A stretch of DNA of 64,000 nt from Mytilus edulis (taxonomy: Eukaryota): the NCBI RefSeq assembly GCF_963676685.1, contig NC_092347.1, positions 310,001 through 374,000 of the forward strand. Reading direction: 5' to 3'. The notes under the pieces were generated by a model that searched no databases, was not told the DNA's origin, and worked only from the letters and a program-made list of their open reading frames with translations. Positions 2,166 to 54,439 of the stretch are shown one piece after another. Within the stretch, counting starts at the first letter, position 1; every line of letters begins with the position of its first letter. Made by a program: the position numbers and the translations under genes.

Positions 2166-5100
2166 GGACAGAGGTCTCGGAGACATCATACCAACAACAT
2201 CAGGATAGATGTCTCAGAGACAACAAATCGACATCACAATCAAAGTAATATAGAATAGATGTCACAGAGACACCAAACTGACAACACAATTAAAGTAATA
2301 TGGATAGATGTCATAGAGACAACAAACTGACAACACAATCAAAGTAATATGGATAGATGTCACAGAGACAACAAATTGACAACACAATCAAGTCGTATAG
2401 GAGAGATGTCACAGAGACAACAAACTGACAACACAATTAAAGTAATATAGAATGAATGTCACAGAGACAACAAACTGACAAAACAATCAAAGTAATATAG
2501 GATAGATGTCACAGAGACACCAAACTGACAACACCATCAAAGTAATATAGGATAGATGTCACAGAGACACTAAACTGACAACACCATCAAAGTAATATAG
2601 GATAGATGTCACAGAGACACTAAACTGACAACACCATCAAAGTAATATAGGATAGATGTCACAGAGACAGCAAACTGACAACACAATCAAAGTAATATAG
2701 AATAGATGTCACAGAGACACTAAACTGACAACACTATCAAAGTAACATAGGATAGATGTCACAGGGACAACAAACTGACAACACAATCAAAGTAATGATG
2801 GAAAGATGTTTCAGAGACAACAAACCGACAACAAGTTATCAAAGTAATGTGGGAAAGATGTTTTAGAGACAACAAACCGACAACACTATTAATGTAATTT
2901 GGTAAAGATGTTTCAGAGACAACAAACCGACAACACTGTTAAAGTAATGTGGGAAAGATGTTTCAGAGACAACAAACCGACAACACTGTCAAAGTAATGT
3001 GGGAAAGATGTTTCAGAGACAACAAACCGACAACACAAACTAAAAAATATTGTATAGATGTTTCAGAGACAACAAACCGAGAGCACTATCAAAGTAATGT
3101 TGGATAGATGTTTCAGAGACAACAAACCGACAACACTATCAAAGTAATGTGGGAAAGATGTTTCAGAGACAACAAACCGACAACACTAGCAATGTAATGT
3201 GGGATAGATGTTTCAGAGACAACAAACTGACAACACTATCAAATTAATGTGGGAAAGATGTTTCAGAGACACCAAACTGCCAACACTATCAAAGTAATGT
3301 GGGTTAGATGTTTCAGAGACAACAAACCGACAACACAAACTAAAAAATATTGTATAGATGTTTCAGAGACAACAAACCGAGAGCACTATCAAAGTAATGT
3401 TGGATAGATGTTTCAGAGACAACAAACTGTTAACACAATCTAAAAAGCATAGGATTGATGTTTCAGAGACAACAAACCGACATCACTATCAAAGTAATGT
3501 GGGATAGATGTTTCAGAGACAACAAACCGACAACACTATCAATGTAATGTGGGAAAGATGTTTCAGAGACAACAAACTGACAACACAATCTAAAAAGCAT
3601 AGGATTGATGTTTCAGAGACAACAAACCGACAGCACTATCAAAGTAATGTGGGAAAGATGTTTCAGAGACAACAAACCGACAACACTAGCAATGTAATGT
3701 GGGATAGATGTTTCAGAGACAACAAACTGACAACACTATCAAATTAATGTGGGAAAGATGTTTCAGAGACACCAAACTGACAACACTATCAAAGTAATGT
3801 GGGTTAGATGTTTCAGAGACAACAAACTGACAACACTTTCAAAGTAATGTGGGAAAGATGTTTCAGAGACAACAAACCGACAACACTATCAAAGTTATGT
3901 GGGAAAGAAGTTTCAGAGACAACAAACCGAAAACACTATAAAAGTAATGTGGGAAAGATGTTTCAGAGACAACAAACCGACAATGCAATCTAAGTAATGT
4001 GGGAAAGATGTTTCAGAGACAACAAAATCGACAACACTATCAAAGTAATGTGGGAAAGATGTTTCAGAGACAACAAAACAACAACACTATCAAAGGAATG
4101 TGGGATAGATGTTTCAGAGACAACAAACTGACAACACTATCAAAGTAATGTGGGAAAGATATTTCAGAGACAACAAACCGACAACACTATCAAAGTTATG
4201 TGGGAAAGATGTTTCAGAGACAACAAACCGACAATACAATCTAAGTAATGTTGGATAGATGTTTCAGAGACAACAAACCGACAACACTATCAAAGTAATG
4301 TGGGAAAGATGTTTCAGAGACAATAAATCGACAACACAAACTAAGTAATGTGGGAAAGATGTTTCAGAGACAACAAACCAACAACACTATCAGAGAAATG
4401 TGGGAAAGATGTTTCAGAGACAACAAACCGACAATACAATCTAAGTAATGTGGGAAAGATGTTTCAGAGACAACAAACTGACAATACTATCAAAGTAATG
4501 TGGGAAAGATGTTTCAGAGACAACAAACCGACAACACAAACTAAGTAATGTGGGAAAGATGTTTCAGAGACAACAAACTGACAACACTATCAAAGTAATG
4601 TGGGAAAGATGTTTCAGAGACAATAAATCGACAACACAAACTAAGTAATGTGGGAAAGATGTTTCAGAGACAACAAACCGACAACACTATCAAAGTAATG
4701 TGGGAAAGATGTTTCAGAGACAACAAACCGACAATACAATCTAAGTAATGTTGGATAGATGTTTCAGAGACAACAAACTGACAACACTATCAAAGTAATG
4801 TGGGAAAGATGTTTCAGAGACAATAAATCGACAACACAAACTAAGTAATGTGGGAAAGATGTTTCAGAGACAACAAACCGACAATACAATCTAAGTAATG
4901 TGGGAAAGATGTTTCAGAGACAACAAACCGACAATACAATCTAAGTAATGTGGGAAAGATGTTTCAGAGACAACAAACCGACAATACTATCAAAGTAATG
5001 TGGGATAGATGTTTCAGAGACAACAAACTGACAACACTATCAAAGTAATGTGGGAAAGATGTTTCAGAGACAATAAATCGACAACACAAACTAAGTAATG

Positions 5101-5735
5101 TGGGAAAGATGTTTCAGAGACAACAAACCGACAATACAATCTAAGTAATGTGGGAAAGATGTTTCAGAGACAACAAACTGACAACACTATCAAAGTAATG
5201 TGGAAAAGATGTTTCAGAGACAACAAACCGACAATACAATCTTAGTAATGTTGGATAGATGTTTCAGAGACAACAAACCGACAATACAATCTAAGTAATG
5301 TGGGAAAGATGTTTCAGAGACAACAAACCGACAATACAATCTAAGTAATGTGGGAAAGATGTTTCAGAGACAACAAACTGACAACACTATCAAAGTAATG
5401 TGGGAAAGATGTTTCAGAGACAACAAACCGACAATACAATCTTAGTAATGTTGGATAGATGTTTCAGAGACAACAAACTGACAACACTATCAAAGTAATG
5501 TGGGAAAGATGTTTCAGAGACAACAAACCGACAATACAATCTAAGTAATGTTGAATAGATGTTTCAGAGACAACAAACCAACAATACTATCAAAGTAATG
5601 TGGGAAAGATGTTTCAGAGACAACAAACCGACAACACTAGCAATGTAATGTTGGAAAGATGTTTCAGAGACAACAAACCGACATTACAATCTAAGTAATG
5701 TTGGATAGATGTGGAAGACACAACAAACCAACAAA
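2166..5735. repeat. 50-bp tandem satellite (about 70 copies)
   Basis: Unit GATGTTTCAGAGACAACAAACCGACAACACTATCAAAGTAATGTGGGAAA, with 50-bp period visible directly. A variant subfamily (GATGTCACAG..ATATAGG) occupies about 2200-2790. Confidence 0.97.
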
Positions 5736-8004: not shown

Positions 8005-8110
8005 TCACGCCTTCGTTTGCAGAATTTTGCTCGCTGTATTGAAGACAAATTGGTGGCCTTCAACTGTTTTCTGCTTTTTGATCGGGTTGTTGTCTCTTTT
8101 GAAACATTCA
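8005..8110 (+). mobile_element. 3'-terminal fragment of family X (Penelope-like element tail)
   Basis: TTGAAGAC..TTGGTGGCCTTC..TCGGGTTGTTGTCTCTTT matches the reverse complement of 21143-21285. Confidence 0.7.
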
Positions 8111-9117: not shown

Positions 9118-9228
9118 GAGGAATCAGTTAAGGACCCCCTCCGGGAGTGGGATTTTCTCGCTTGTTATATGTACTTTGGTCGGGTTGTTGTCTCTTTGAC
9201 ATAGTCCCTATTTCCATTAGCAATTTTA
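9118..9228 (+). mobile_element. 3'-terminal fragment of family X
   Basis: AAGGACCCCCTCCGGGAGTGGGATTTTCTCGC...GGTCGGGTTGTTGTCTCTTTGACA..TTTCCATT..AATTTTAT. Confidence 0.7.
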
Positions 9229-9319
9229 TGATAGACACATGTCATTTATTTTGAATACATTTAAAATATACGGAAATTAAACCTCAGTCTACTTCGCAGG
9301 AAAATAGATATTAGTTTTA

Positions 9320-10769: not shown

Positions 10770-12827
10770 TCCAGAGCAGTGTTTTCTTGAGGCAACGACA
10801 AGGCAACGACAGTTGTCTTTAAAGGATCAGGAACCTCTGTCCCTTTCAGAGAAACAGTGTTTTCTTGAGACAACGATAGTTGTCTTTAAAGGATCAGGAA
10901 CTTCTGTCCCTTCCAGAGAAACAGTGTTTTCTTGAGGCATGCAACGACGGTTGTCTTTAAAGGATCAGGAACCTCTGTCCCTTCCAGAGAAACAGTGTTT
11001 TCTTTAGGCAACGACAGTGGTCTTTAAAGGATCAGTAATCTCTGACTCTTCCAGAGAAACAGTGTTTTTTGAGGCAACGACAGTTGTCTTTAAAGGATCA
11101 GGAACCTCTGCTCTTCCAGAGAAAGTGTTTTCTTGAAGCAACGACAGTTGTCTTTAAAGGACCAGGAACCTCTGTCCCTTCCAGAGAGACAGTGTTTTCT
11201 TGAGGCAACGACATTAACGAAGCAATGCTACTGACCCTTCTGTAACGCTTACGTTTTTTAGGAGTACCACGAGCGTTGTCAATAATGAAAATCCTGAACT
11301 AATGACCCCTCCAGAGCCAGAGCATAAGTGTTTTGAGAGTTAACGCAACATTTGTCAGTAATGACAATGGAACTACTGGTTCTTCCAGAGAAACAGTGTT
11401 TTCTTGAGGCATGCAACGACCGTTGTCTTTAAAGGATCAGGAACCTCTGTCCCTTCCAGAGAAACAGTGTTTTCTTGAGGCAACGACAGTTGTCTTTAAA
11501 GGATTAAGAACCCCTGTCTCTTCTAGAGAAACAGTGTTTTTGAAGCAACGACAGTTGTCTTTAAAGGACCAGGAACCTCTGTCCCTTCCAGAGAAACAGT
11601 GTTTTCTTGAGGCAACGACAGTTATCTTTAAAGGATCAGGAACCTTTGTCCCTTCCAGAGAGACAGTGTTTTCTTGAGGCATGCAACGACCGTTGTCTTT
11701 AAGGGATCAAGAACCTCTGTCCCTTCCAGAGAAACAGTGTTTTCTTGAGGCAACGACAGTTGTCTTTAAAGGATCAGTAACCTCTGACTCTTCCAGAGAA
11801 ACAGAGGTTTCTTGTGGCAACGACAATTGTCTTTAAAGGATTAAGAACCTCTGTCTCTTCTAGAGAAACAGTGTTTTTGAAGCAACGACAGTTGTCTTTA
11901 AAGGACCAGGAACCTCTGTCCCTTCTAGAGAAACAGCGTTTTCTTTAGGCAACGACAGTTATCTTTAAAGGATCAGTAACCTCTGTCCCTTCCAGAGAAA
12001 CAGTGTTTCCTTTAGGCATGCAACGACCGTTGTCTTTAAAGGATCAGGAGCCTCTATCCCTTCCAGAGAAACAGTGTTTTCTTGAGGCAACGACAGTTGT
12101 CTTTAAAGGATCAGTAACCTCTGACTCTTCCAGAGAAACAGTGTTTTCTTGAGGCAACGACAGTTGTCTTAAAAGGACCAGGAACCTCTGTCCCTTCCAA
12201 AGAAACAGTGTTTTCTTGAGGCAACGACAGTTATCTTTAAAGGATCAGGAACCTTTGTCCCTTCCAGAGAAACAGTGTTTTCATGAGGCATGCAACGACT
12301 GTTGTCTTTAAAGGATCAGGAACCTCTATCCCTTCCAGAGAAACAGTGTTTTCTTGAGGCAACGACAGTTGTCTTTAAAGGATCAGTAACCTCTGACTCT
12401 TCCAGAGAAACAGAGTTTTCTTGAGGGCACGGGCAGTTGTCTTTAAAGGATCAGAAACCTTTGACTCTTCCAGAGAAACAGTGTTTTCTTGAGGGCACGG
12501 GCAGTTGTCTTTAAAGGATCAGAAACCTCTGACTCTCCAGATTAACAGTGTTTTCTTGAGGGCACAGGCAGTTGTCTTTAAAGGATCAGTAACCTCTGAC
12601 TCTTCCAGAGAAACAGTGTTTTCTTGAAGCAACGACAGTTGTCTTAAAAGGATCAGTAACCTCTGACTCTTCCAGAGAAACAGTTTTTTTAGGCAACGAC
12701 AGTTGTCTTTAAAGGAACAGGAACCTCTGTCCCTTCCAGAGAATCAGTGTTTTCTTGAGTCCAGGGCAGTTGTCTTTAAAGGATCAGGAACCTCTGATCC
12801 TTCCAGAGAAACGGTGTTTTCTTGAGG
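10770..12827. repeat. About 67-bp tandem satellite, with its about 190-bp leader duplicated (10596-10790 and 11211-11410)
   Basis: Unit GCAACGACAGTTGTCTTTAAAGGATCAGGAACCTCTGTCCCTTCCAGAGAAACAGTGTTTTCTTGAG. The leader CATTAACGAAGCAATGCTACTGACCC occurs twice. Confidence 0.93.
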
Positions 12828-16276: not shown

Positions 16277-16347
16277 TGCTGTTGTTTTTTATTTGGTCGG
16301 GTTGTTGTCTCTTTGACACATTCCCCATTTCCATTCTCAATTTTATT
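16277..16347 (+). mobile_element. About 70-bp 3'-terminal insertion of family X
   Basis: Nearly identical to the reverse complement of 21143-21212. It is absent at the homologous site in arm B (about 36706-36712). Confidence 0.85.
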
Positions 16348-16568
16348 AAACCAGTATAATTAAAGTAATTGACATGAGAAGGACAATTTAGGTAAGAGCG
16401 TACAAAAAATGTAAAGTTAAGTATGAATCAACATAGTATCTGAGTGTGTGAGATTTATATCCCAGGCATAGATTACCTTAGCCGTATTTGGCACAACTTT
16501 TTGGAATTTTGGATCCTCAATGCTCTTTAACTTTTTACTTGTTTGGCTTAATAAATATTTTGATATGA

Positions 16569-16612
16569 GCGTCACTGATGAGTCTTATGTAGACGAAACG
16601 CGCGTCTGGCGT
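16569..16612 (+). ncRNA. Type I hammerhead ribozyme, copy 1
   Basis: GCGTCA-CTGATGA-GTCT(TATGT)AGAC-GAA-ACGCGCGT-C-TGGCGT: canonical core, 4-bp stem II, palindromic stem III, GUC cleavage triplet. Confidence 0.92.
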
Positions 16613-16922
16613 ACTAACTTATAATCCTGGTACCTTTGATAACTATTTACACCACTGGGTCGATGCCACTGCTGGTAGACGTTTCGTCCCCGAGGGTATC
16701 ACTAGCCCAGTAGTCAACACTTCGGTGTTGACATGAATATCAATTATGTGGTCATTTTGACAAACTTCCTGTTAACAAAACTTTGAATTTTTCGAAAACT
16801 AAGGATTTTCTTATCCCAGGCATAGATTACCTTAGCCGTATTTGGCACAACTTTTTGGAATTTTGGATCCTCAATGCTCTTTAACTTTTTACTTGTTTGG
16901 CTTAATAAATATTTTGATATGA

Positions 16923-16966
16923 GCGTCACTGATGAGTCTTATGGAGACGAAACGCGCGTCTGGCGT
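16923..16966 (+). ncRNA. Type I hammerhead ribozyme, copy 2
   Basis: Same as copy 1, with loop II TATGG. Confidence 0.92.
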
Positions 16967-17276
16967 ACTAAATTATAATCCTGGTACCTTTGATAACTTT
17001 TTACACCACTGGGTCGATGCCACTGCTGGTGGACGTTTCGTCCCCGAGGGTATCACCAGCCCAGTAGTCAACACTTCGGTGTTGACATGAATATCAATTA
17101 TGTGGTCATTTTGACAAACTTCCTGTTAACAAAACTTTGAATTTTTCGAAAACTAAGGATTTTCTTATCCCAGGCATATATTACCTTAGCCGTATTTGGC
17201 ACAACTTTTTGGAATTTTGGATCCTCAATGCTCTTCAACTTTTTACTTGTTTGGCTTAATAAATATTTTGACATGA

Positions 17277-17320
17277 GCGTCACTGATGAGTCTTATGGAG
17301 ACGAAACGCGCGTCTGGCGT
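17277..17320 (+). ncRNA. Type I hammerhead ribozyme, copy 3
   Basis: Same as copy 1, with loop II TATGG. Confidence 0.92.
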
Positions 17321-17630
17321 ACTAAATTATAATCCTGGTACCTTTGATAACTATTTACACCATTGGGTCGATGCCACTGCTGGTGGACGTTTCGTCCCCG
17401 AGGGTATCACCAGCCCAGTAGTCAACACTTCGGTGTTGACATGAATATCAATAATGTGGTCATTTTTACAAACTTCCTGTTAACAAAACTTTGAATTTTT
17501 CGAAAACTAAGGATTTTCTTATCCCAGGCATAGATAACCTTAGCCGTATTTGGCACAACTTTTTGGAATTTTGGATCCTCAATGCTCTTCAACTTTTTAC
17601 TTGTTTGGCTTAATAAATATTTTGATATGA

Positions 17631-17674
17631 GCGTCACTGATGAGTCTTATGCAGACGAAACGCGCGTCTGGCGT
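17631..17674 (+). ncRNA. Type I hammerhead ribozyme, copy 4
   Basis: Same as copy 1, with loop II TATGC. Confidence 0.92.
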
Positions 17675-17712
17675 ACTTAATTATAATCCTGGTACCTTTG
17701 ATAACTATTATA

Positions 17713-19751: not shown

Positions 19752-20222
19752 ATAAGAAGTAAAATCACAAAAATACTGAACTCAGAGGAAAATCAATTCG
19801 GAAAGTCCATAATCACATGGCAGAATCAAATAACAAAACACATCAAAATCGAATGGGCAAGAACTGTCATATTCCTGACTTGGAACAGGCATTTTCAAAT
19901 GTAGAAAATGATGGATTAAACCTGGTTTTATAGCGCTAACCCTCTCACTTTGGTGACAGTCTCATCAAATTCCGTTATATTTACATTGTTGCGTTAACTA
20001 AACAGACACAATAAATAAAATAGTCAAAATATGGGTACAGCAGTCATCATCGTGTAACAATTTTAAAAGGAACAATTTAACAGAACACAAAACATTTATC
20101 TACAAACACATTCATTGATTCGCGTGTCTGACGTCAGAAAATGTTATACGTCAAATATATTTGTCGTTTAATGTACATACAAACAATTTTAAAATTTCAC
20201 ATAGGCAATGTTAGCATACAGG
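19752..20222 (-). mobile_element. Retroelement-like 3' fragment carrying a twister fold
   Basis: Shares the GCCTGTYCCAAGTCAGGA module and layout with the 3' UTR of 21143-22193. Boundaries are approximate. Confidence 0.55.
19863..19960 (-). ncRNA. Putative type-P5 twister ribozyme
   Basis: Minus strand: ACUGUCA..GUGA-GAGGG-UU..GGUUU^AA-UCC-AU-C-AUUUUC(7)GAAAAU-G-CCUG-UUCCAAGU-CAGG-AAUA-UGACAGU. P5, P3 and P4 stems and both pseudoknots are formable; P2 is weak. Confidence 0.7.
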
Positions 20223-21377
20223 GAGAACTGATAGCACGCATTAATAAAACTACTATATATATATGCTTGTGTTGTAAATGTTAATGCCATATTCTTTTTT
20301 TTTCTTTTTTTCTTTACAATGATCGCCAATTACAATTTTTTTTTCGTTGTCCCTTGGTACTTTCTTGTGTTTTTCTGAACCAAGTTTTTTTCATTGCCTT
20401 TTGGTATATTTATTTTTATTTTTAAAAGGACTGTTTTTTTTTAAGATAATAGTATTTTCAACACATATTTAAAAGATAGCTTTTAATTACATAAAACCCC
20501 ATGAAAGTTCCAACATGCTGGATCATAATAATACGAGATATATACGATGGCAACCCTTAGAAAAGACATGATATTTATCAAAATAAAAGCCCAGAAAGAT
20601 GCTTTTAAAATGAACAACGATATACATCTAAAACTCGCTACGTCCTAAATGCATGCCTTAGTAATATATTTTGATTTGAATATCATAAATCTAAACCTTA
20701 CAACATACCACACGTTGCATACACAAACCACTGTTTTATGTTACCTTGTCTTTATAACTAATGGACATTAATCAAACTAGGTTCTTTGTAGTACATGGAG
20801 TCATCAAGATAATCAGACGCTATACTATTTACTTGAACCAGGCGAAACTAATAGGAATTATTCATTTAGTAACAATAAAACAAAAGATCGCTAATGTATA
20901 TGCTGATATTGGGAGCGTTTTATTCCACAATAAATCTAAAGTGTTCAATTTTGTTTTAAATATCTAATTTTATATAATAATTTGATAAAATGTTTTACAA
21001 TAACATTGTAATTCCTGATTGTCATCTAAATGACTGTATGTCAACAAATAGATCCCACTCGATAGATGTATCTGGAGGAATGCGGACTTAGTTGTGTGAT
21101 AAAGGTATCTAGCGAACTGCAGAGAATATGTTTAGTTATGGGATAAAAATGAGAATGGAAATGGGGAATGTGTCAAAGAGACAACAACCCGACCAAATAA
21201 AAAACAACAGCAGAGGGTCACCAACAGGTCTTCAATGTAGCGAGAAATTCCCTCACCCGGAGGTGTCCTTCAGCTGGCCCCTAAACAAATATATACCAGT
21301 CCAGTGATAATGAACGCCATACTAATTTCCAAATTGTACACAAGAAACTAAAATTAAAATAATACAAGACTAACAAA

Positions 21378-21468
21378 GGCCAGAGGCTCCTGACTTGGGA
21401 CAGGCGCAAAAATGCGGCTGGTTTAAACATGTTTGTGAGATCTCAACCCTCCCCCTATACCTCTAACC
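21378..21468 (-). ncRNA. Putative type-P5 twister ribozyme
   Basis: Minus strand: GGUUAGAGGU-AUA-GGGG-GAGGG-UU..AUGUUU^AA-ACCA-GC-C-GCA(UUUU)UGC-G-CCUG-UCCCAAGU-CAGG-A-GCCUCUGGCC. It matches the twister core (UAA, UCCCAAG loop 4, GAGGG). P2 has two mismatches in this copy. Confidence 0.78.
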
Positions 21469-21765
21469 AATGTAGAAAAGTAAACGCATAACAATACGCA
21501 CATTAAAATTCAGTTCAAGAGAAGTCCGAGTCTGATGTCAGAAGATGTAACCAAAGAAAATAAACAAAATGACAATAATACATAAATAACAACAGACTAC
21601 TAGCAGTTAACTGACATGCCAGCTCCAGACTTCAATTAAACTGACTGAAAGATTATGATTTCATCATATGAACATCAGGCACAATCCTTCCCATTAGGGG
21701 TTTAGTATCATACCATCATAACATATATGAGAAGAACATAACCCGTGTCATGCCAACAACTGTTT

Positions 21766-22193
21766 TTAGAATAAATGTGTTAAGTTCCGATGCAAAGACC
21801 TTATCAGTGACTCAATATTAACGCCAAAATATGCAATCTTTAATGACTTGACAACAGTATCGTAATTATATCCCTTCTTAATAAGTCTATTCAAAGGTTT
21901 TGTAAGTTTCTGAGGTGAATACTGACACCTTTGTGCTTTATAAAGAATATTTCCATAAAAAATTGGATGTGAAATACCTGAACGTATTAGAAGTCTGCAT
22001 GTTGAGCTATATTTACGAATGATGTCTTTATACCGATGATAAAATTTAGTAAATGTTTTGACTAGTTTAATTTGTGATATCGAAAACCCTGGTGTAATAA
22101 TTTTTCAGTAATACATAAATTTCTCTCGTTAAAATCTAAAACATTGTTACATACACGAGCGAATCGTACAAGTTGAGATATATAAACACCGTA
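21766..22193 (-). pseudogene. Penelope-like reverse transcriptase C-terminal (thumb) relic
   Basis: Manual translation YGVYISQLVRFARVCNNVLDFNERNLCITEKLLHQGFRYHK/LVKTFTKFYHRYKDIIRKY...HRNLTHLF*, with one frameshift near 22065. Homologous to YGVCISQLIRYSRAC in the ORF at 38769-39110. Confidence 0.85.
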
Positions 22194-22194
22194 A

Positions 22195-25100
22195 TAATTT
22201 ATTTGGCGGCTTGCAGAGACTTTGTTTGGTTACTGGTATGTGATCAATGTATCTGCCGGACTGAATTTGTTTAGTTATGTGATAAAGGTATCTTGCGGAT
22301 TTGTTTAGTTAAGTGATAAAGATATGTGGCGAACTGCAGAGAATAATTATGTTCAGTTATGGAATAAATGTATTTGGCGGCTTGCAGAGAATTTTTTTAG
22401 TGACTGGTACAAATGTATGTGATCAATGTATCTGGTGGATTGCATTAGTTTCGTTATCTGATAAAGGTATCATGTGGCGAACTGCAGAGAATATGTTAAG
22501 ATAAGGGGTAAATGTATTTGGCGGCTTGCAGAGAAAATGTTAAGTTACTGGTATGTGATCTATGTATCTGGCGGACTGCATTTATTTAGTTATGTGATAA
22601 ATGCATCTGGCGAACTGAGAACAGAGAATGTGTTTAGTTATGGGATAACTGTATTTGGAGGCTTGCAGAGAATATGTTTAGTTATGAGATAACTGTATTT
22701 GGCGGCTTGCCGAGAACTTGTTTAGTTACTGGTATGTAATCAATGTATCTGGCGAACTGCAGAGAATTTGTTAAGATATGTGATAAATGTATCTGGCGGA
22801 CTACAGAGAATTTGTTTAGTTATGCGGTCAATATGTATTTGGCGGACTGTAGAGAATTGTTTAGTTGTGGGGATAAATGCATTTGGTGAACTGCTGAGAA
22901 TTTGTTTAATGGTGTGATAAACGTATTATGCGAACTGCAGATGAATTGTTAAGTTATGTGTAAACTGGCGGACTGCTGAGGATAATTGAATTTATTTGAT
23001 CTGGTGGACTGCAAATGAATTGTTTAGTTGTGTAATCAATGTATCTGGCAGACTTCACATGATTTGTTTAGTTGTGTGATACATGCATCTGATGGACTGC
23101 AGAGGATATTTAGTTGTGTGGTACATGTATCTGATGGACTGCAGAGGATATGTTTAGTTGTGTGGTACATGTATCTGATGGACTGCAAAGGATATGTTTA
23201 GTTGTGTGGTACATGTATCTGTTGGTCTGCAGAGGATATGTTTAGTTGTAAGGTAAATGTGTCTGATGGACTGCAGAGGATATGTTTAGTTGTGTGGTAA
23301 ATGTATCTGATGGACTGTAGAGGATATGTTTAGTTGTAAGGTAAATGTGTCTGATGGACTGCAGAGGATATGTTTAGTTGTGTGGTAAATGTATCTGATG
23401 GACTGTAGAGGATATGTTTAGTTGTGAGGTAAATGTATCTGATGGACTGTAGAGGATATGTTTAGTTGTGTGGTAAATGTATCTGATGGACTGTAGAGGA
23501 TATGTTTAGTTGTGAGGTAAATGTATCTGATGGACTGCAGATTATATGTTTAGTTGTGTGGTAAATGTATCTGATGGACTGCAGAGGGTATGTTTAGTTG
23601 TATGGTAAATGTATCTATTGTTCTGCAGAGGATATGTTTAGCTGTGTGGTACATGTATCTGATGGGCTGCAGAGGATATGTTTAGTTGTGTAGTACATGT
23701 ATCTAATGGACTGCAGAGGATATCTTTAGTTGTGTGGTACATGTAATATCTGATGGTCTGCAGAGGATATGTTTAGTTGTGTGGTAAATGTATCTGATGG
23801 ACTACAGGGGATATGTTTAGTTGTTTGGTAAATGTATCTGATGGACTGCAGAGGATATTTAGTTGTGTGGTACATGTATTTGATGGACTGCAGAGGATAT
23901 CTTTAGTTGTGTGGTAAATGTATCTGATGGACTACAGGGGATATGTTTAGTTGTGTGGTAAATGTATCTGATGGACTGCAGAGGATATGTTTAGTTGTGT
24001 GGAAAATTTATCTGATGGACTGCAGAGGATATGTTTAGTTATGTTGTAAATGTATCTGGTGGTCTGCAGAGGATATGTTCAGTTGTGTGGTACATGTATC
24101 TGATGGTCTGCAGAGGATTTGTTTAGTTGTGTGGAAAATTTATCTGATGGACTGCAGAGGATATATTTAGTTATATTGTAAATGTATCTGGTGGTCTGCA
24201 GAGTATATGTTTAGTTGTGTGGTAAATGTATCTGATGGACTACAGGGGATATGTTTAGTTGTGTGTTACATGTATTTGATGGACTGCAGAGGATATGTTT
24301 AGTTGTGTGGTAAATGTATCTGATGGACTGCAGATTATATGTTTAGTTGTGTGGAAAATTTATCTGATGGACTGCAGAGGATATGTTTAGTTATGTTATA
24401 AATGTATCTGGTGGTCTGCAGAGGATATGTTCAGTTGTGTGGTACATGTATCTGATTGACTGCAGAGGATATGTTTAGTTGTGTGGTACATGTATCTGAT
24501 GGACTGCAAAGGATATCTTTAGTTGTGTGGTAAATGTATCTGGTGGTCTGCAGAGGATATGTTCAGTTGTGTGGTACATGTATCTGATGGTCTGCAGAGG
24601 ATATGTTTAGTTGTGTGGTACATGTAGCTGATGGACTGCAGAGGATATGTTTAGTTGTGTGGTAAATGTATCTGGTGTTCTGCAGAGGATATGTTTAGTT
24701 GTGTGGTACATGTATCTGATTGACTGCAGATGATATGTTTGGTTGTGTGGTAAATGTATCTGATGGACTGTAGATTATATCTTAAGTTGTGTGTTAAATG
24801 TATCTGATTGACTGCAGAGGATATGTTTAGTTGTGTGGTACATATATCTGATGGATTGTAGAGGATATGTTTAGTTGTGTGGTACATGTATCTGATGGAC
24901 TGCAGAGGATATGTTTAGTTGTGTGGTAAATGTATGTGATGGATTGTAGAGGATATGTTTTGTTGTGTGGTAAATGTATCTGATGGACTGCAGAGGATAT
25001 GTTTAGTTGTGTGGTACATGTATCTGGTGGTCTGCAAAGGATATGTTCAGTTGTGTGGTACATGTATCTGGTGGTCTGCAAAGGATATGTTCAGTTGTGT

Positions 25101-28100
25101 GGTAAATGTATCTGATGGACTGCAGAGGATATGTTTAGTTGTGTGGTACATGTATCTGGTGGTCTGCAAAGGATATGTTTAGTTGTGTGGTAAATGTATC
25201 TGATGGACTGCCGGGGATATGTTTAGTTGTGTGGTACATGTATCTGATGGACTACAGGGGATATGTTTAGTTGTGTGGTACATGTATCTGGTGGACTACA
25301 GGGGATATGTTTAGTTGTGTGGTAAATGTATCTGATGGACTGCAGAGGATATGTTTAGTTGTGTGGTACATATATCTGATGGACTGCAGAGGATATGTTT
25401 AGTTGTGTGGTACATATATCTGATGGACTGCAGAGGATATGTTTAGTTGTGTGGTACATGTATCTGGTGGTCTGCAAAGGATATGTTCAGTTGTGTGGTA
25501 AATGTATCTGATGGACTGCAGAGGATATGTTTAGTTGTGTGGTACATGTATCTGGTGGTCTGCAAAGGATATGTTCAGTTGTGTGGTACATGTATCTGAT
25601 GGACTACAGGGGATATGTTTAGTTGTGTGGTAAATGTATCTGATGGACTGCAGAGGATATGTTTAGTTGTGTGGTACATATATCTGATGGACTGCAGAGG
25701 ATATGTTTAGTTGTGTGGTACATGTATCTGGTGGTCTGCAAAGGATATGTTCAGTTGTGTGGTAAATGTATCTGATGGACTGCAGAGGATATGTTTAGTT
25801 GTGTGGTACATGTATCCGGTGGTCTGCAAATGATATGTTCAGTTGTGTGGTAAATGTATCTGATGGACTGCAGAGGATATGTTTAGTTGTGTGGTAAATG
25901 TATCTGATTGACTGCAGAGGATATGTTTTGTTGTGTGGTACATGTATCTGATGGTCTGCAGAGGATATGTTTAGTTGTGTGGTAAATGTATCTTATGGAC
26001 TGCAGAGGATATATTTAGTTATATTGTAAATGGATCTGGTGGTCTGCAGAGGATATGTTTAGTTGTGTGGTAAATGTATCTGATGGACTACAGGGGATAT
26101 GTTTAGTTGTGTGTTACATGTATTTGATGGACTGCAGAGGATATGTTTAGTTGTGTGGTAAATGTATCTGATGGACTGCAGATTATATGTTTAGTTGTGT
26201 GGAAAATTTATCTGATGGACTGCAGAGGATATGTTTAGTTATGTTATAAATGTATCTGGTGGTCTGCAGAGGATATGTTCAGTTGTGTGGTACATGTATC
26301 TGATTGACTGCAGAGGATATGTTTAGTTGTGTGGTACATGTATCTGATGGACTGCAAAGGATATCTTTAGTTGTGTGGTAAATGTATCTGGTGGTCTGCA
26401 GAGGATATGTTCAGTTGTGTGGTACATGTATCTGATGGTCTGCAGAGGATATGTTTAGTTGTGTGGTACATGTATCTGATGGACTGCAGAGGATATGTTT
26501 AGTTGTGTGGTAAATGTATCTGGTGTTCTGCAGAGGATATGTTTAGTTGTGTGGTACATGTATCTGATTGACTGCAGATGATATGTTTGGTTGTGTGGTA
26601 CATGTATCTGATGGACTGTAGATTATATCTTAAGTTGTGTGTTAAATGTATCTGATTGACTGCAGAGGATATGTTTAGTTGTGTGGTACATATATCTGAT
26701 GGATTGTAGAGGATATGTTTAGTTGTGTGGTACATGTATCTGATGGACTGCAGAGGATATGTTTAGTTGTGTGGTAAATGTATGCGATGGATTGTAGAGG
26801 ATATGTTTTGTTGTGTGGTAAATGTATCTGATGGACTGCAGAGGATATGTTTAGTTGTGTGGTACATGTATCTGGTGGTCTGCAAAGGATATGTTCAGTT
26901 GTGTGGTACATGTATCTGGTGGTCTGCAAAGGATATGTTCAGTTGTGTGGTAAATGTATCTGATGGACTGCAGAGGATATGTTTAGTTGTGTGGTACATG
27001 TATCTGGTGGTCTGCAAAGGATATGTTCAGTTGTGTGGTAAATGTATCTGATGGACTGCAGAGGATATGTTTAGTTGTGTGGTACATGTATCTGGTGGTC
27101 TGCAAAGGATATGTTCAGTTGTGTGGTACATGTATCTGATGGACTACAGGGGATATGTTTAGTTGTGTGGTAAATGTATCTGATGGACTGCAGAGGATAT
27201 GTTTAGTTGTGTGGTACATATATCTGATGGACTGCAGAGGATATGTTTAGTTGTGTGGTACATGTATCTGGTGGTCTGCAAAGGATATGTTCAGTTGTGT
27301 GGTAAATGTATCTGATGGACTGCAGAGGATATGTTTAGTTGTGTGGTACATGCATCTGGTGGTCTGCAAAGGATATGTTCAGTTGTGTGGTAAATGTATC
27401 TGATTGACTGCAGAGGATATGTTTAGTTGTGTGGTAAATGTATCTGATTGACTGCAGAGGATATGTTTTGTTGTGTGGTACATGTATCTGATGGTCTGCA
27501 GAGGATATGTTTAGTTGTGTGGTAAATGTATCTGATGGACTGCAGAGGATATGTTTAGTTGTGTGGTAAATGTATCTGATTGACTGCAGAGGATATGTTC
27601 AGTTGTGTGGTAAAAGTATCTGATGGACTGCAGAGGATATGTTTAGTTGTGTGGTACATGTATCTGATGATCTGCAGAGGATATGTTCAGTTGTGTGGTA
27701 CATGTATCTGGTGGACTGCAGAGGATATGTAGTTGTGTGGTACATGTATCTGATGGTCTGCAGAGGATATGTTTAGTTGTGTGGTACATGTATCTGATGG
27801 ACTGCAGAGGATATGTTTAGTTGTGTGGTAAATGTATCTGGTGTTCTGCAGAGGATATGTTTAGTTGTGTGGTACATGTATCTGATTGACTGCAGATGAT
27901 ATGTTTGGTTGTGTGGTACATGTATCTGATGGACTGTAGATTATATCTTAAGTTGTGTGTTAAATGTATCTGATTGACTGCAGAGGATATGTTTAGTTGT
28001 GTGGTACATATATCTGATGGATTGTAGAGGATATGTTTAGTTGTGTGGTACATGTATCTGATGGACTGCAGAGGATATGTTTAGTTGTGTGGTAAATGTA

Positions 28101-29440
28101 TGCGATGGATTGTAGAGGATATGTTTTGTTGTGTGGTAAATGTATCTGATGGACTGCAGAGGATATGTTTAGTTGTGTGGTACATGTATCTGGTGGTCTG
28201 CAAAGGATATGTTCAGTTGTGTGGTACATGTATCTGGTGGTCTGCAAAGGATATGTTCAGTTGTGTGGTAAATGTATCTGATGGACTGCAGAGGATATGT
28301 TTAGTTGTGTGGTACATGTATCTGGTGGTCTGCAAAGGATATGTTCAGTTGTGTGGTAAATGTATCTGATGGACTGCAGAGGATATGTTTAGTTGTGTGG
28401 TACATGTATCTGATGGACTACAGGGGATATGTTTAGTTGTGTGGTACATGTATCTGGTGGACTACAGGGGATATGTTTAGTTGTGTGGTAAATGTATCTG
28501 ATGGACTGCAGAGGATATGTTTAGTTGTGTGGTACATATATCTGATGTACTGCAGAGGATATGTTTAGTTGTGTGGTACATATATCTGATGGACTGCAAA
28601 GGATATGTTCAGTTGTGTGGTAAATGTATCTGATGGACTGCAGAGGATATGTAGTTGTGTGGTACATGTATCTGATGGACTACAGGGGATATGTTTAGTT
28701 GTGTGGTACATGTATCTGGTGGTCTGCAAAGGATATGTTCAGTTGTGTGGTAAATGTATCTGATGGACTGCAGAGGATATGTTTAGTTGTGTGGTACATG
28801 TATCTGGTGGTCTGCAAAGGATATGTTCAGTTGTGTGGTACATGTATCTGATGGACTACAGGGGATATGTTTAGTTGTGTGGTAAATGTATCTGATGGAC
28901 TGCAGAGGATATGTTTAGTTGTGTGGTACATGCATCTGGTGGTCTGCAAAGGATATGTTCAGTTGTGTGGTAAATGTATCTGATTGACTGCAGAGGATAT
29001 GTTTAGTTGTGTGGTAAATGTATCTGATTGACTGCAGAGGATATGTTTTGTTGTGTGGTACATGTATCTGATGGTCTGCAGAGGATATGTTTAGTTGTGT
29101 GGTAAATGTATCTGATGGACTGCAGAGGATATGTTTAGTTGTGTGGTAAATGTATCTGATTGACTGCAGAGGATATGTTCAGTTGTGTGGTAAAAGTATC
29201 TGATGGACTGCAGAGGATATGTTTAGTTGTGTGGTACATGTATCTGATGATCTGCAGAGGATATGTTCAGTTGTGTGGTACATGTATCTGGTGGTCTGCA
29301 AAGGATATGTTTAGTTGTGTGGTACATGTATCTGATGGACTGCAGAGGATATGTTTAGTTGTGTGGTACATGTATCTGGTGGTCTGCAGAGGATATGTTT
29401 AGTTGTGTGGTAAATGTATCTGGTGGTCTGCAGATGATAT
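22195..29440. repeat. 44-bp tandem satellite (homogeneous from about 23085; decayed at 22195-23085 and 21060-21142)
   Basis: Unit GTATCTGATGGACTGCAGAGGATATGTTTAGTTGTGTGGTACAT, with a PstI site in most units. Confidence 0.97.
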
Positions 29441-31782
29441 AGATATGAGAAGCCAGCCATACAGACAAGAAAAATGTTTTAAAATTTTATTAAATTAATT
29501 TATACTATTATTTGTTTTGCATTTTTAAATAATGTGTTTTCCTGTTTCTTAATATTCGTCCTTTTATACTATTTAGTTATGTTTTCACTAAAATGTCAGA
29601 CTGAGGTTTATTTTTCGGAATTTGCAGAATAGCATTAAAGAACAATTCTTTAAGTTAAAGGAATACATATGTAGGACTTGGTGGTGCGACTGGGACGCTG
29701 AAGTACAATGGTCACGCTGAAGTGCATTGGTCCACGGATACGTCAAAGCACGATAATCCTCTCGCTGAAGTATGATGGTTTGGCATGACGTTTGAATATT
29801 ACTTGTGACGTTTTCAAATACAAAGTTGAATCAAATACAACAGGGTTTCGCAGATAGGAGAATAAGATTTTGTAGACGAAATTTTAACGCGAGTAGATGA
29901 AAGTTTCATGCGAACAAAGGAAGAAAAAAGTAAAGAACGATGCAAGTCCTGTAACAGTTTTAAAAAGTACTAGTGCAGGTGGATATTACAAAAAAGACTA
30001 TGTGCGGTGGCAAACCATGGGAACCAAATTAAAGCGGCAAAATATGAACTCGATAATATTTGTATTAAGAACATCGTCACTCTAGCCTTATTTTATTGTT
30101 GTTATAGTATTTAGATTTCTAAATCATTTTATCCGAAATTAACCTGACTAGTACCTTAGTGGACCTCCCAATTTACTTTATTCTTCTCAGCAAGTGGCGA
30201 ATCAGCAAATGTAAAAAAATGGCAGAAAACGGGTCTTATTTTTATATAGACTTACACTCTGAATTTTTCTTTTTTTTCAATCTTCTACATTATAATATTT
30301 GACTCCAAACTTCTGTGTAATAATAGGAGAATTTAAAATTAGATTGAAACAAATTAGAATTTAAATTAAAAATACAAGCGATGTATTTATATAATACTGT
30401 AGGTTATAAATTTCTCTAAATCTTGAAATGATGTCTGGAAAAATATCAAGAATATAAAAAATAAATCCGCTTTCATGCTAATTTTTCTGAAATGTAATAA
30501 GATTTATACTAATAATCATAAACATTTTTTAGGGTAATTGAAATGAAAAAAAGCTCCGATAAGAATTAGCTGGGGTCCGTGTTGGTTAATATTTAGTCGT
30601 CGGTGTTTGTGGTAAATCTCTTTTCAGTATAGAACTTTGGAATCATAGACGTTTGCCAAACATTTTCTATTGATGATTGATTGTTGCTGAAAGCCTACAT
30701 TTTAATATAATCCCTTATTCTAATGTCTGAGCACTCTGACTTATATTTTGTCGCCCTGAAGAATGATACACCGGAGAAGAAAGCCTGATCTCTCAAACGA
30801 TTTCCCTTTCAAGTAAGTCTTTATGAACCATATGAGACAAAAAACTAAAATTATTTATCATAATAGTTTATTATTTACCCGTCAAGACCACGCGAATAGC
30901 TGGGTATAGTTATATTCTATTAAAAGTACTTTGGCACAAGGTTATTATTGTTCATAAAAGACTCGCTGGAGGGCAATTGATTTAACTAGTCGAATGCAAT
31001 TTATTTATTTATCTCCTTCATCACGGACCGATCCTTTGAAGTATGTACATAATTAATTTATCTTTAAGTAATTAGAACGCACTGTAATCGGACCGGAACT
31101 ATGCAAAAAAATGAGAGTCATCCTGACATTGTAATGCTATCACTGTGCATTAAAAAGATACAATCAAAAGTGACAATCACATGAAAATGGATTGTGAAAA
31201 TTTGACAATGAAACGTGGTGCATTCGTCAATAAAATGGGTACTGATATTCGAAAATAAAACAAAGAACATTATCCAGTGTATATAAAGTGCGAATCCAGT
31301 CAGTTCATTTTCACTGTTGTATGCGAGTTGGTTCATTGTAGAATAAAGGATCATGGGAAAACTTTATTTGTTTACGTTTTGAAAATACCAAAATAATTGA
31401 TTTGAAACTAAATTTTAACATATTTTCATTATGATGTGTCTTTTTAATGTAAAATAACAGTATTAAAGTTCAAATATGTGTTATAAAAGCAACATAACAT
31501 AGAATATCAGTTATTAAAAGCGACCCATTTTCACTATAGATGCTATGAATTATCACTGTATGGCATTCATTTCTGATGTAGAATTTTCGAAAATGCGATG
31601 AATTTTTATTGTAGATTAATGTAATAATTAGACTTGCAACACATGAAAAACTTTTTTGATTACTTTAATATTTATATCTATTTATAACTTGTATATGTCT
31701 ATAGAAACTGGCTGGTCATTTATACGTTTTCCCACAGTATTGACATGTGTGAACTGTAAACTGAAATGTTTCCCCGCAATGT

Positions 31783-38480: not shown

Positions 38481-39330
38481 AAATGAAAGAAGACAAACAA
38501 GCAAACAATAGAACACATGACACAACATAGAAAACAAAAGCATAAGCAACACGAAATACTAGTAGTATAATTCGATAGGCACATTCATGAAAGGGAAAGG
38601 GGTTGTAGTTACGACGTAAGGAACATATCCGATATCATTTGTGAAACGGTTATTCCATAACGGTCAACCAAATTGTGATGGCGTCTGTAAATTTTACGAA
38701 GGGATGATTTCAACTACACCATTTGGAACTCTGGGTTTAATAGCTTCCTTGTGAGCAGCAACCCTTTATCAATTAAGAAAATCATAATAGGAAATGCAAG
38801 CACGGGAATATCGTATCAATTGGGAGATACATACCCCGTATGCAGGTGCTGCTTGAATGTTGCTACTTAGAAATGGAAAGTTCACAATTGGAAAGCTGCA
38901 AACATCTCTTTTGTTGTAAAGTTTTGTTTTCAACCGACCCTCATTGTCAATTTCTATATTTAAGTCAAGATATAAGGCCGACTTAACTGTATCTGTTGTA
39001 TCCTTTATCTCAAGTTCGATGGGATAGATGCGTTCAACATAGTCACCAAATTTTGAATTATTTAGTGAAAGAATGTCATCTATATAGCGGAAAGTAGAGT
39101 TATTGCTCACTTCTTATCTTTCTTCTTAAGAAGATACTGTATGAAGTCAGCCTCATAACAATAAAGAAACTAGTCGGCAAGAAGAGGGGAACAATTGGTT
39201 CCCATTGGAATGCCGACAGTCTGTTCAAAAACACATCCTCCGAACGTAACAAATATGTTGTCAATCAAGAAACCAAGCATCTTCATAATGTTAGTTTCAC
39301 AGAATTGTTTGTTTGAAACAGAGTAACCCT
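38481..39330 (-). mobile_element. 5'-truncated Penelope-like retroelement (Naiad-type), specific to arm B
   Basis: Absent from arm A (about 14565-14581). It contains an RT relic that ends without a C-terminal GIY-YIG domain. Confidence 0.85.
38609..39325 (-). pseudogene. Penelope-like reverse transcriptase fragment
   Basis: FLIDNIFVTFGG..QTVGIPMGTNCSPLLAD*, FRYIDDILS, YLDL, KLYNKRD..FPIVNFPFLSSNI, YGVCISQLIRYSRAC, RHHNLVDRYG; several stops and frameshifts. Confidence 0.9.
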
Positions 39331-44139: not shown

Positions 44140-46868
44140 TATAGGAGGTAAGATAAAAGTATTTGACAACGGTACACATTTACCAGTATTGACAACAATA
44201 CACACATACAAGTATTGACAACGGTACCTACATACAGTTATTAACAATGGTACACAATGGTACACAAATACAGGTATTGACAACGGTACACAAATACAAG
44301 TATTGACAACGGTACACAAATACCAATATTATAAACAACGGTACACATTTACCAGTATTGACAACGGTACCCAAATAAAAGTATTGACAACGGAATACAT
44401 TTGTCAGTATTAACAACGGTACACAAATACAAGTATTGACAACAGAACACATTTGTCAGTATTGACAACGGTACACAAATACAAGTATTGACAACGGAAC
44501 ACATTTGTCAGTATTGACAACGGTACACATTTACAAGTATTGACAACGGAATACATTTGTCAGTATTAACAACGGTACACAAATACAAGTATTGACAACG
44601 GAACACATTTGTCAGTATTGACAACGGTACACAAATACAAGTATTGACAACGGAACACATTTGTCAGTATTGACAACGGTACACAAATACAAGTATTGAC
44701 AACAGAACACATTTGTCAGTATTGAAAACGGTACACAAATACAAGTATTGACAACGGAACACATTTGTCAGTATTGACAACGGTACACAAATACAAGTAT
44801 TGACAACGGAACACATTTTTCAGTATTGACAACGGTACACATTTACAAGTATTGACAACGGAATACATTTGTCAGTATTAACAACGGTACACAAATACAA
44901 GTATTGACAACGGAACACATTTGTCAGTATTGACAACGGTACACAAATACAAGTATTGACAACGGAACACATTTGTCCGTATTGACAACGGAACACATTT
45001 GTCCGTATTGACAACGGAACACATTTGTCCGTATTGACAACGGAACACATTTATCAGTATTGACAACGGAACACATTTGTCAGTATTGACAACGGAACAC
45101 ATTTGTCAGTATTGACAACGGTACACATTTGTCAGTATTGACAACGGAACATATTTGTCCGTATTGACAACGGAACACATTTGTCAGTATTGACAACGGA
45201 ACACATTTGTCAGTATTGACAACGGTACACATTTGTCCGTATTGACAACGGAACACATTTGTCAGTATTGACAACGGTACACATTTGTCAGTATTGACAA
45301 CGGAACACATTTGTCCGTATTGACAACGGAACACATTTGTCAGTATTGACAACGGTACACATTTGTCAGTATTGACAACGGAACACATTTGTCAGTATTG
45401 ACAACGGTACACATTTGTCAGTATTGACAACGGAACACATTTGTCCGTATTTGTCCGTATTGACAACGGAACACATTTGTCCGTATTTGTCCGTATTGAC
45501 AACGGAACACATTTGTCAGTATTGACAACGGTACACAAATACAAGTATTGACAACGGAACGCATTTGTCCGTATTGACAACGGAACACATTTGTCCGTAT
45601 TGACAACGGAACACATTTGTCCGTATTGACAACGGAACACATTTATCAGTATTGACAACGGAACACATTTGTCAGTATTGACAACGGAACACATTTGTCA
45701 GTATTGACAACGGTACACATTTGTCAGTATTGACAACGGAACATATTTGTCCGTATTGACAACGGAACACATTTGTCAGTATTGACAACGGAACACATTT
45801 GTCAGTATTGACAACGGTACACATTTGTCCGTATTGACAACGGAACACATTTGTCAGTATTGACAACGGTACACATTTGTCCGTATTGACAACGGAACAC
45901 ATTTGTCAGTATTGACAACGGAACATATTTGTCAGTATTGACAACGGAACACATTTGTCCGTATTGACAACGGAACACATTTGTCAGTATTGACAACGGT
46001 ACACATTTGTCAGTATTGACAACGGAACACATTTGTCAGTATTGACAACGGTACACATTTGTCAGTATTGACAACGGAACACATTTGTCAGTATTGACAA
46101 CGGTACACATTTGTCAGTATTGACAACGGAACACATTTGTCCGTATTGACAACGGAACACATTTGTCAGTATTGACAACGGAACACATTTGTCCGTATTG
46201 ACAACGGAACACATTTGTCCGTATTGACAACGGAACACATTTGTCCGTATTGACAACGGAACACATTTGTCAGTATTGACAACGGAACACATTTGTCCGT
46301 ATTGACAACGGAACACATTTGTCAGTATTGACAACGGAACACATTTGTCAGTATTGACAACGGTACACATTTGTCCGTATTGACAACGGAACACATTTGT
46401 CAGTATTGACAACGGAACACATTTGTCAGTATTGACAACGGAACACATTTGTCCGTATTTGTCCGTATTGACAACGGAACACATTTGTCAGTATTGACAA
46501 CGGAACACATTTGTCCGTATTGACAACGGAACACATTTATCCGTATTGACAACGGTACACATTTGTCAGTATTGACAACGGTACACATTTGTCAGTATTG
46601 ACAACGGAACACATTTGTCAGTATTGACAACGGAACACATTTGTCAGTATTGACAACGGAACACATTTGTCAGTATTGACAACGGAACACATTTGTCAGT
46701 ATTGACAACGGAACACATTTATCGGTATTGACAACGGAACACATTTGTCGGTATTGACAACGGAACACATTTGTCAGTATTACAACGGAACACATTTGTC
46801 AGTATTGACAACGGAACACATTTGTCAGTATTGACAACGAAACACATTTGTCGGTATTGACAACGGTA
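44140..46868. repeat. 26-bp tandem satellite (about 100 copies)
   Basis: Unit ATTGACAACGGAACACATTTGTCAGT; alternating 52-bp dimers at about 44400-44960. Confidence 0.97.
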
Positions 46869-52924: not shown

Positions 52925-53192
52925 TCAAAGTCAGGAGCTTCTGGTCTTTGTAAGTGTTGTATGATTTTTAATTTCATAGTTTCTTTTATATATTTTAAAG
53001 TTTAGTGTGACGACCATTGTCACTGAGCTTATACACATTTTTGTTAATAAGCCAGGTGACGAATGCCTCCGGGTGCGAGATATTCTTGCTGTATTGAAGA
53101 CCCATTAGTGGCCTTCGGCTGTATTCTGGTCTTTTGTCGGGTTATTGTCTCTTAAGTTTGAAACATTCCACATTTCCTTTCTTAATTTTATT
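52925..53192 (+). mobile_element. Family X 3' fragment beginning within the twister loop 4/P4 region
   Basis: CAAAGTCAGGAGCTTCTGGTCTTTG...GCCTCCGGGTGCGAGA..TTGAAGACCCATTAGTGGCCTTCGGCTG..GTCGGGTTATTGTCTC..AATTTTA is colinear with the reverse complement of 21143-21400. Confidence 0.8.
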
Positions 53193-54036: not shown

Positions 54037-54160
54037 AGGACGCCTCCGGGGACGGAAGTTTCTCGCTACATTGAAGACCCATTGGTGGCCTTCGGCTGTT
54101 GTCTGCTTATGGTCGGGTTGTTGTCGCTTTGACACATTCTCCATTTCCATTATCAATTTA
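54037..54160 (+). mobile_element. Family X tail
   Basis: GGACGCCTCCGGG..TCTCGCTACATTGAAGACCCATTGGTGGCCTTCGGCTG..GGTCGGGTTGTTGTCGCTTTGACACATTC. Confidence 0.8.
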
Positions 54161-54439
54161 ATTATTATCCATTTGTCTCATCAGTTGATCATATATATTT
54201 TCCATTGTTTTAGCTCAGGTCCCTCCCTGATTGCCTCATCAGTTGACCATAGATATATTCCATTTGTCTTTGCTCAGGCCCATTCATGATGGCCTTATCA
54301 GTTGATCAATCTTTTGGGTTCCTGTCACTATGTTGTCTATGTTTATCTTTCATGCGCTTCGGTTGCTGTTTTATTTATGTAAAACGGTTATATTTTTGGC
54401 TTGGTTTGATTGTTGTCTCGTTGGTGTATGTTGTCAATA

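Follow-up and report, generated by a model that had tools for sequence, protein, structure and literature searches.

A probable twister fold with covarying palindromes in place of P1 at the 3' end of Naiad retroelements, and a possible role of RNA–RNA pairing in its predicted cleavage

Architecture of the motif and its host element

Naiad Penelope-like retroelements (PLEs) appear to carry, in their 3' ends, a twister fold in which covarying palindromes replace the P1 stem; we tentatively propose that these palindromes pair two RNA copies and favour the predicted self-cleavage. The motif was examined on the minus strand at positions 21378–21468 of the window, which is the whole 64,000-nucleotide stretch of Mytilus edulis DNA analysed here. 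Sixteen family representatives were compared with it: seven from the M. edulis genome and nine from metagenome and symbiont-assembly records. Because some of them are sister pairs, they amount to about 10 lineages.

The copy in the window belongs to a family designated A, and its motif, delimited by base pairs and covariation, resembles type-P5 twisters. Read 5' to 3', it opens with the 5' strand of P5 (21459–21468), which pairs with the P5 3' strand at 21378–21387. The 3' strand of P2 and the letters GAGGG follow (21447–21455), the latter comprising the predicted general-base G (21451) and the 3' strand of T1, which covaries. As the sequence-only reading had stated, GAGGG (21451–21447) is followed by U, UGAGAUCUCA, C, AAACAUGUUU, and AA, and both 10-mers are perfect palindromes. 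For palindrome 1 (21436–21445) and palindrome 2 (21425–21434), the predicted homoduplex energies are −14.0 and −8.2 kcal/mol, respectively, and no hairpin is predicted for either. The last nucleotide of palindrome 2 lies directly 5' of the predicted cleavage site, U|A at 21424–21425, which was assigned by homology to twister L1 (PMC8501958; PMC5408937). The remaining parts, recognized by pairing, are the 5' strands of P2 and T2 (21416–21422, from a pairing comparison), the P3 hairpin (21406–21415), and the P4 stem with the L4 loop (21389–21405), which holds the partners of T1 and T2. The order of parts around the palindromes, namely P5, P2, P3, P4, and both pseudoknot partners, is that of type-P5 twisters.

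An ordinary P1 is absent, in agreement with the earlier claim. The would-be first P1 pair is U·U in all 16 representatives, a position partly fixed by the search pattern in nine of them, and the region lacks a stable fold. Folding of the isolated region gave a predicted minimum free energy of 0 in family A; that of family B, which is represented by the 19.9-kb repeat, does not fold by itself either. In the window copy, positions 21422 and 21419 carry A in place of the C of copy L176. Two of the four P2 pairs are thereby broken, so that this particular copy may be weakened; its catalytic letters are retained.

Family B is a second Naiad family. Its 3' end in the window (19753–20223, minus strand) was delimited by copy boundaries, and the C-terminus of a Naiad reverse transcriptase (RT) was found 5' of five other B copies. 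The B motif (19863–19960, minus strand) contains UAGCGCUA (19938–19931) and AAACC-A-GGUUU (19928–19918) at the equivalent place, just as had been noted. It was recognized from its sequence and from a weak match to the Rfam twister-P1 model (19.6 bits, E = 2.5) that covers P3–P4 only. This was the best score obtained with the Rfam twister models, none of which reached the gathering score with the family motifs; in the window, no Rfam model of any kind did. Family C, the sister of B, matches one published Naiad consensus by eye.

The host element of the family A motif is a 5'-truncated 3' end (21143–22194, minus strand), whose boundaries were set from 29 other copies and which matches the 3'-terminal 1.05 kb of a long copy (L097) with 97.7% identity. 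It includes a C-terminal remnant of the RT open reading frame with its stop codon (21781–22193, minus strand; frameshift near 22068), identified by tblastn and blastp against residues 868–1002 of the protein P0001. Between the stop and the twister motif, the 3' UTR holds a SECIS-like hairpin (21665–21729, minus strand; Rfam RF00031, 32.6 bits, E = 0.0018, below the gathering score of 35). The family A ORF end is present at 150 genome places at least.

Long copies (minus strand of L097) would encode the 1002-residue P0001 if UGA is read as selenocysteine. Four in-frame UGA codons stand at conserved cysteine positions, with TGA in 6 of 6, 6 of 6, 6 of 6, and 11 of 11 covering copies. A motif search against the list in PMC8557442 revealed the Naiad motifs of P0001 in the expected order: an N-terminal GIY-YIG with CX2-5CxxC, a KR block, CxC, GxKF/Y, DKA, and a C-terminal RT. 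Searches of Pfam and PDB with P0001 gave no significant match. From the motifs of P0001 and by-eye matches to published sequences, we assign family A to the selenoprotein subtype of Naiad with predicted UGA recoding. It resembles the clam Naiads of this subtype (PMC8557442) in the N-terminal GIY-YIG, CxC, DKA, and C-terminal RT as well as in UGA at cysteine positions, SECIS, 5' truncation, and partial tandems. Selenoprotein-type Naiads have been reported from spiders and clams only (PMC8557442); family A is a Naiad of this type with many near-identical copies in a mussel-type genome.

A Naiad RT match on the same strand precedes the motif at 80 of 200 loci, compared with 3 of 195 on the downstream side. 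Family A, which was partly selected by ORF, accounts for 60 of these 80 loci, and two of the B matches stem from an adjacent A copy. C-terminal RT matches remain for families B, D, F, F2, I, and M. From the stop to the predicted cut there are 356 nt, and from the cut to a fixed 3' end about 282 nt: of 101 3' ends, 89 lie at +281 to +285, and the 5' ends are scattered, as produced by 5' truncation. Partial tandems, in which the element head directly follows the 3' end, occur at three loci (L030, L093, and L176). Tandem copies carrying two motifs do exist, as had been presumed: L093 has two twister motifs in tandem, 3.4 kb apart, and its two copies share two private variants that are absent from 18 other copies. 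The upstream pieces of the tandems vary in length and extend beyond the cut site. This arrangement fits a circular or re-used template and also a tandem master locus.

The fold and its palindromes across families

The fold alignment included 15 of the 16 representatives; family E was omitted as a decayed copy. In the core, 94% of 149 cells are paired, and two-sided changes occur in 6 of 10 pairs. The covariation score was reached by none of 500 shuffles, a test inflated by the relatedness among families, and slid controls were 15–42% paired. P4 is 100% paired, with two-sided changes in two pairs (C-G/A-U and U-A/C-G), and P2 has at least two pairs in 15 of the 16 representatives and four in six of them. 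The pseudoknots T1 and T2 are 91 and 97% paired, both with two-sided changes, and a further T1 swap was read by eye in Naiad-1_Movir. The catalytic G and A among the conserved L1/L4 nucleotides, which a twister core requires, occur in every representative and likewise in the window copy; these letters were partly imposed by the search patterns, the tight pattern having fixed several core letters in the nine outside families. We take the conserved G and A of the motif to be the catalytic residues of a twister.

A classical P1 fails in all 16 representatives, and no P1 is conserved. This counts against calling the motif a canonical twister member; it does not count against its working like a twister, since P1 is dispensable for activity (PMC5408937). 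Dispensability of P1 in the twisters tested is also documented in PMC11662667, where natural twisters tolerate defects in both P1 and P2. We are highly confident that the fold is of the twister type, and intact family copies are predicted, with good probability, to cleave themselves.

The palindromic character is kept while the sequence changes, as the sequence-only reading had proposed from two loci. Two Watson–Crick palindromes (each with at least 6 paired nucleotides and a sum of at least 14) were found in 14 of the 16 representatives, whereas flank windows, which overlap one another, contained them in 39 of 1730 cases. The two exceptions, F and F2, qualify only via a central U·G pair. Palindromy is thus conserved in about 10 lineages and in published Naiad consensus entries. 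In the supplement of PMC8557442, five bivalve entries from mussels and clams contain the motif with further, different palindromes, one assigned to Naiad_Mphi by the next header and the others by file order alone. The same motif is present there in the box jellyfish entry Naiad-1_Movir, which was found via the L4/P4 word alone. The motif count among the 54 entries of this source is a lower bound, as line breaks conceal matches.

Ten distinct palindrome-1 cores and seven palindrome-2 cores are complementary through the centre, and the palindrome-1 cores include all four symmetric central dinucleotides. Palindrome 1 is always even and symmetric and is the stronger of the two. In two sister subfamilies from one host, the central pair is swapped in a compensatory manner (A-U in 53, G-C in 18, wobble in 4, and mismatch in 3 of 78 copies). 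In the F type, the centre of the second palindrome is a U·G pair (70 of 76 copies), which makes it symmetric solely as sense-strand RNA.

The layout is constant as well. Centre-to-centre spacing of the palindromes is 11–12.5 nt, or about one A-form turn, in 15 of 16 representatives (family I, 11.5 nt, was measured by hand); the region is 20–24 nt long although the search pattern permitted 19–30; and palindrome 2 terminates at the −1 nucleotide or 1 nt before it in all 16. Predicted homoduplex energies per palindrome range from −8 to −14 kcal/mol in families A and B and are, per family, modestly better than those of shuffles (z from −0.6 to −2.6).

A chance or mutational origin of the palindromes was considered. 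A single adjacent 10+10 pair does not exceed chance, as 20 shuffles of the window gave six in total, or about 0.3 per 64 kb, and conservation within family A is not significant (none of 360 palindrome cells differs, where the overall rate of 0.7% would predict about 2.4). Against this origin, palindromes of differing sequence recur with constant position, length, and spacing in about 10 lineages and in the published consensus entries. This cross-family conservation is beyond chance, and the counts largely refute the chance reading, which we regard as extremely improbable.

In 80 evenly spaced 10-kb samples of the genome, a P4/L4 descriptor gave 37 matches versus 6 in one shuffle; 26 of the 37 were family-like, which corresponds to roughly 44,000 per genome. 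Among 18 genome-contig matches, 12 were dropped as chance, being devoid of the P3/P5 layout, and six were kept. In viral contigs, the tight motif pattern gave no match, all 120 matches to a loose pattern were judged chance on reading, and a Naiad protein query revealed no viral locus. A search for a further family starting from L004 returned only copies similar to family D. One locus (L348:1485–1847) holds two twister motifs on the same strand, 266 nt apart and 83% alike, derived from nested or tandem insertions.

Pairing of two RNA copies, cleavage, and alternative readings

Pairing between two RNA copies, first suggested by the sequence-only reading, is the best account of the palindromes, which covary up to the central pair and differ in sequence among families. 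We consider it likely that the palindromes pair two RNA copies, because even the central pair covaries, and neither a hairpin loop nor a fixed protein site needs it. The U·G-dependent palindrome of the F type places this pairing at the level of sense RNA, not DNA. Whether pairing also favours the predicted cleavage is a more delicate matter, and here our confidence falls slightly short of even.

Two readings dispense with pairing between copies. In one, each palindrome is a small intramolecular hairpin and P1 becomes a three-way junction of the monomer. Odd palindromes such as AAACC-A-GGUUU could indeed close four base pairs on a 3-nt loop. However, the predicted minimum free energy of the region stays between 0 and −1.1 kcal/mol in every one of the 16 representatives. 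The central pair would fall within the loop of such a hairpin and could not form there, yet its two nucleotides are complementary in all cores and change in a compensatory manner; the centres of the P3 hairpins of the same motifs are complementary in just 3 of 16. The hairpin reading is therefore quite improbable. In the other, the palindromes are recognition sites for a protein or act at the DNA level, an option that the earlier reading had left standing. Sites bound by protein dimers typically show dyad symmetry, and the site of a family could evolve jointly with the protein of that family. This option was not supported by the comparison of families: the sequences are wholly different among them, with ten different cores and all four symmetric central dinucleotides; the position is fixed within an RNA fold; and the tandem U·G symmetry of one family's second palindrome works solely in sense-strand RNA. 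We therefore judge recognition sites very improbable.

If two copies pair, the course of events may be pictured as follows. Palindrome 1 would start a kiss between two copies, either within one tandem transcript or in trans. The palindrome-2 duplex would then occupy the place of P1 beside the cut at U|A and, in some families, would displace a monomer helix that buries the two post-cut adenines. Such an 'off' helix is predicted in four of nine families (A, B, F2, and J) and leaves these adenines unburied in the other five (D, F, H, K, and M), with pseudoknots outside the model. Two full 10-bp duplexes should be impossible between two closed loops, as right-handed duplexes would link the loops about twice. 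Because of this constraint, the kiss of palindrome 1 would come first, and the complete double duplex would form only with one core open or one copy already cut. Cleavage of both motifs in a tandem would free an RNA of unit length and permuted order. Once made circular, this RNA could be copied more than once around from the fixed 3' start, a scheme already put forward for the hammerheads of other PLEs. More speculatively, and with clearly less confidence, the motif could be a natural dimer-gated twister, in which two side-by-side one-turn duplexes forming a double-crossover-like joint switch on cleavage, and RNA–RNA pairing at the 3' end could be a general step of PLEs.

A different use of the pairing has a considerable, though minor, probability: the palindromes may join two element RNAs for reasons unrelated to cleavage, such as keeping a pair of templates together for the RT, while the twister cuts as a monomer. 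Dimer signals in retroviruses hold two RNA templates together in this manner. A role in template handling is suggested by a second, non-twister tail motif of Naiads, which also bears one covarying 10-nt palindrome, both in several published entries and in the M. edulis genome. The dispensability of P1 (PMC5408937; PMC11662667) would let the monomer cut unaided, the protein of the PLE Poseidon is a predicted dimer (PMC11167929), and after the cut palindrome 2 would become a free 3' end, with the topological barrier gone. On the other hand, palindrome 2 is located at the cut site in 16 of 16 representatives, as in dimeric hammerheads, and a pure tether need not be there.

A loss of catalysis, which would leave a twister-derived fold as a structural or RT-recognition RNA, is improbable. 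It would agree with several observations: insertions all terminate about 282 nt past the site, several families have a short or mismatched P2, and neither read ends nor 5' truncations mark the predicted cut. Namely, no pile-up of read ends was seen at U|A in one RNA-seq run (a fragmented library covering both strands and mostly dispersed copies), and a standard library of this kind cannot exclude cleavage there. Runs assembled into contigs cannot show ends, and among the runs listed as containing the motif, none is on record as RNA. Genomic 5' ends coincided with the predicted cut in none of 89 cases, in a sample biased towards motif-holding copies. The hammerhead of Poseidon is likewise invisible in RNA-seq, besides being protein-assisted and dispensable for insertion in vitro (PMC11167929). 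Against a loss of catalysis, natural twisters tolerate P1 and P2 defects (PMC11662667), and the catalytic G, the post-cut AA, the L4 AAG, and both pseudoknots are kept from bivalves to jellyfish, partly as letters fixed by the search pattern.

Relation to known ribozymes and further observations

One of the closest known counterparts of the Naiad motif is the type-P5 twister (PMC5408937), with which it shares ends that open in P5, the elements P2, P3, P4, T1, and T2, the GAGG and U|AA letters, and an L4 with CYAAG. Unlike it, the Naiad motif has two palindromes in a 20–24 nt loop in place of P1, scores below the Rfam threshold, and has a predicted activity. The T-variant twisters of Schistosoma Perere-3 elements (PMC8501958) similarly lie inside a retrotransposon and have a defective P1. 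In contrast to the Naiad motif, they are P1-open, occupy the 5' end of an APE-type element, and have a P1 damaged by target-site sequence; PMC8501958 mentions neither palindromes nor dimers.

The minimal type-I hammerheads of PLEs (PMC4209133; PMC6765202) resemble the Naiad motif in their location in the pLTR/3' region of a PLE. They have a palindromic helix III, so that in both cases a palindrome lies directly 5' of the cut, and a dimer between tandem repeats has been proposed for them (PMC4209133; PMC6765202). Their fold is unrelated, and their single palindrome is very short, whereas Naiads have two of 6–12 nt. Also, hammerheads need helix III, while twisters do not need P1 (PMC4209133; PMC6765202; PMC5408937). 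The possibility that palindrome 2 is a hammerhead remnant was dropped, as the CUGANGA half-core had no match there.

Naiads have been reported to lack a canonical hammerhead (PMC8557442). The word 'twister' is absent from the main text of that paper, though its consensus sequences hold the motif, and truncated twisters in RTE elements have been mentioned as unpublished (PMC7761336). Our literature search found no report of Naiad twisters or palindrome-bearing twisters, with subscription journals and bioRxiv supplements as places that could hold one. The motif appears to be a palindrome-bearing variant of a known ribozyme class, in a clade reported without the usual hammerhead.

Naiads dominate bivalve genomes, and their published success without hammerheads has been used to question the importance of PLE ribozymes. 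That a twister fold is kept at the corresponding location in mussels, clams, and a box jellyfish speaks for self-cleavage as part of the cycle and for ribozyme classes that can replace one another. The long covarying palindromes make the dimeric look of PLE ribozymes testable, and directly so because in a twister pairing can be separated from catalysis. If 3'-end RNA–RNA pairing is indeed general, it would span different ribozyme folds, namely the PLE hammerheads, the Naiad twister, and a third, unclassified Naiad tail motif. A twister gated by concentration or by tandem arrangement would, if real, be useful as an RNA switch.

The unclassified tail motif was observed about 100 nt past the Naiad RT at five loci (L124:3165–3290, L139, L167, L169, and L101). 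It consists of an outer helix, a GGGUG/CACC helix, one 10-nt palindrome (CCACAUGUGG in M. edulis and other palindromes in published entries), and a UGCUYAC loop. Rfam gave no match to it. This motif is a candidate unclassified ribozyme or dimer signal.

Some further features of Naiad copies were recorded. The last 55 nt of family A (L093:4237–4291) are common to another abundant repeat family with loose read ends and are likely a common RT recognition end. The junction between the 3' end and the head (L093:4285–4310; also L176 and L030) resembles a splice acceptor, with a U-rich tract followed by CAG; no spliced reads are listed. Six bacterial genome records (L431, L433, L439, L442, L443, and L448) hold animal Naiad tail DNA on short contigs, with a Naiad RT match in three, and likely reflect host or laboratory contamination.

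Elsewhere in the window, a 354-bp tandem array (16458–17709) has four type-I hammerhead matches just below the gathering score, with a short palindrome in helix III, and is a non-LTR retrozyme. A second adjacent pair of palindromes, each of at least 10 nt, occurs at chance level at 29480–29502. One more remnant of a Naiad RT and several stretches resembling the family A 3' end are located at 38778–39277, 52928–53191, 54038–54162, 16277–16346, 9175–9229, and 8007–8109. Large satellite arrays occupy 2203–5734 (50-bp unit), 10801–12827 (67 bp), 22999–29440 (44 bp), 44153–46866 (26/52 bp), and 54410–64000 (47 bp).
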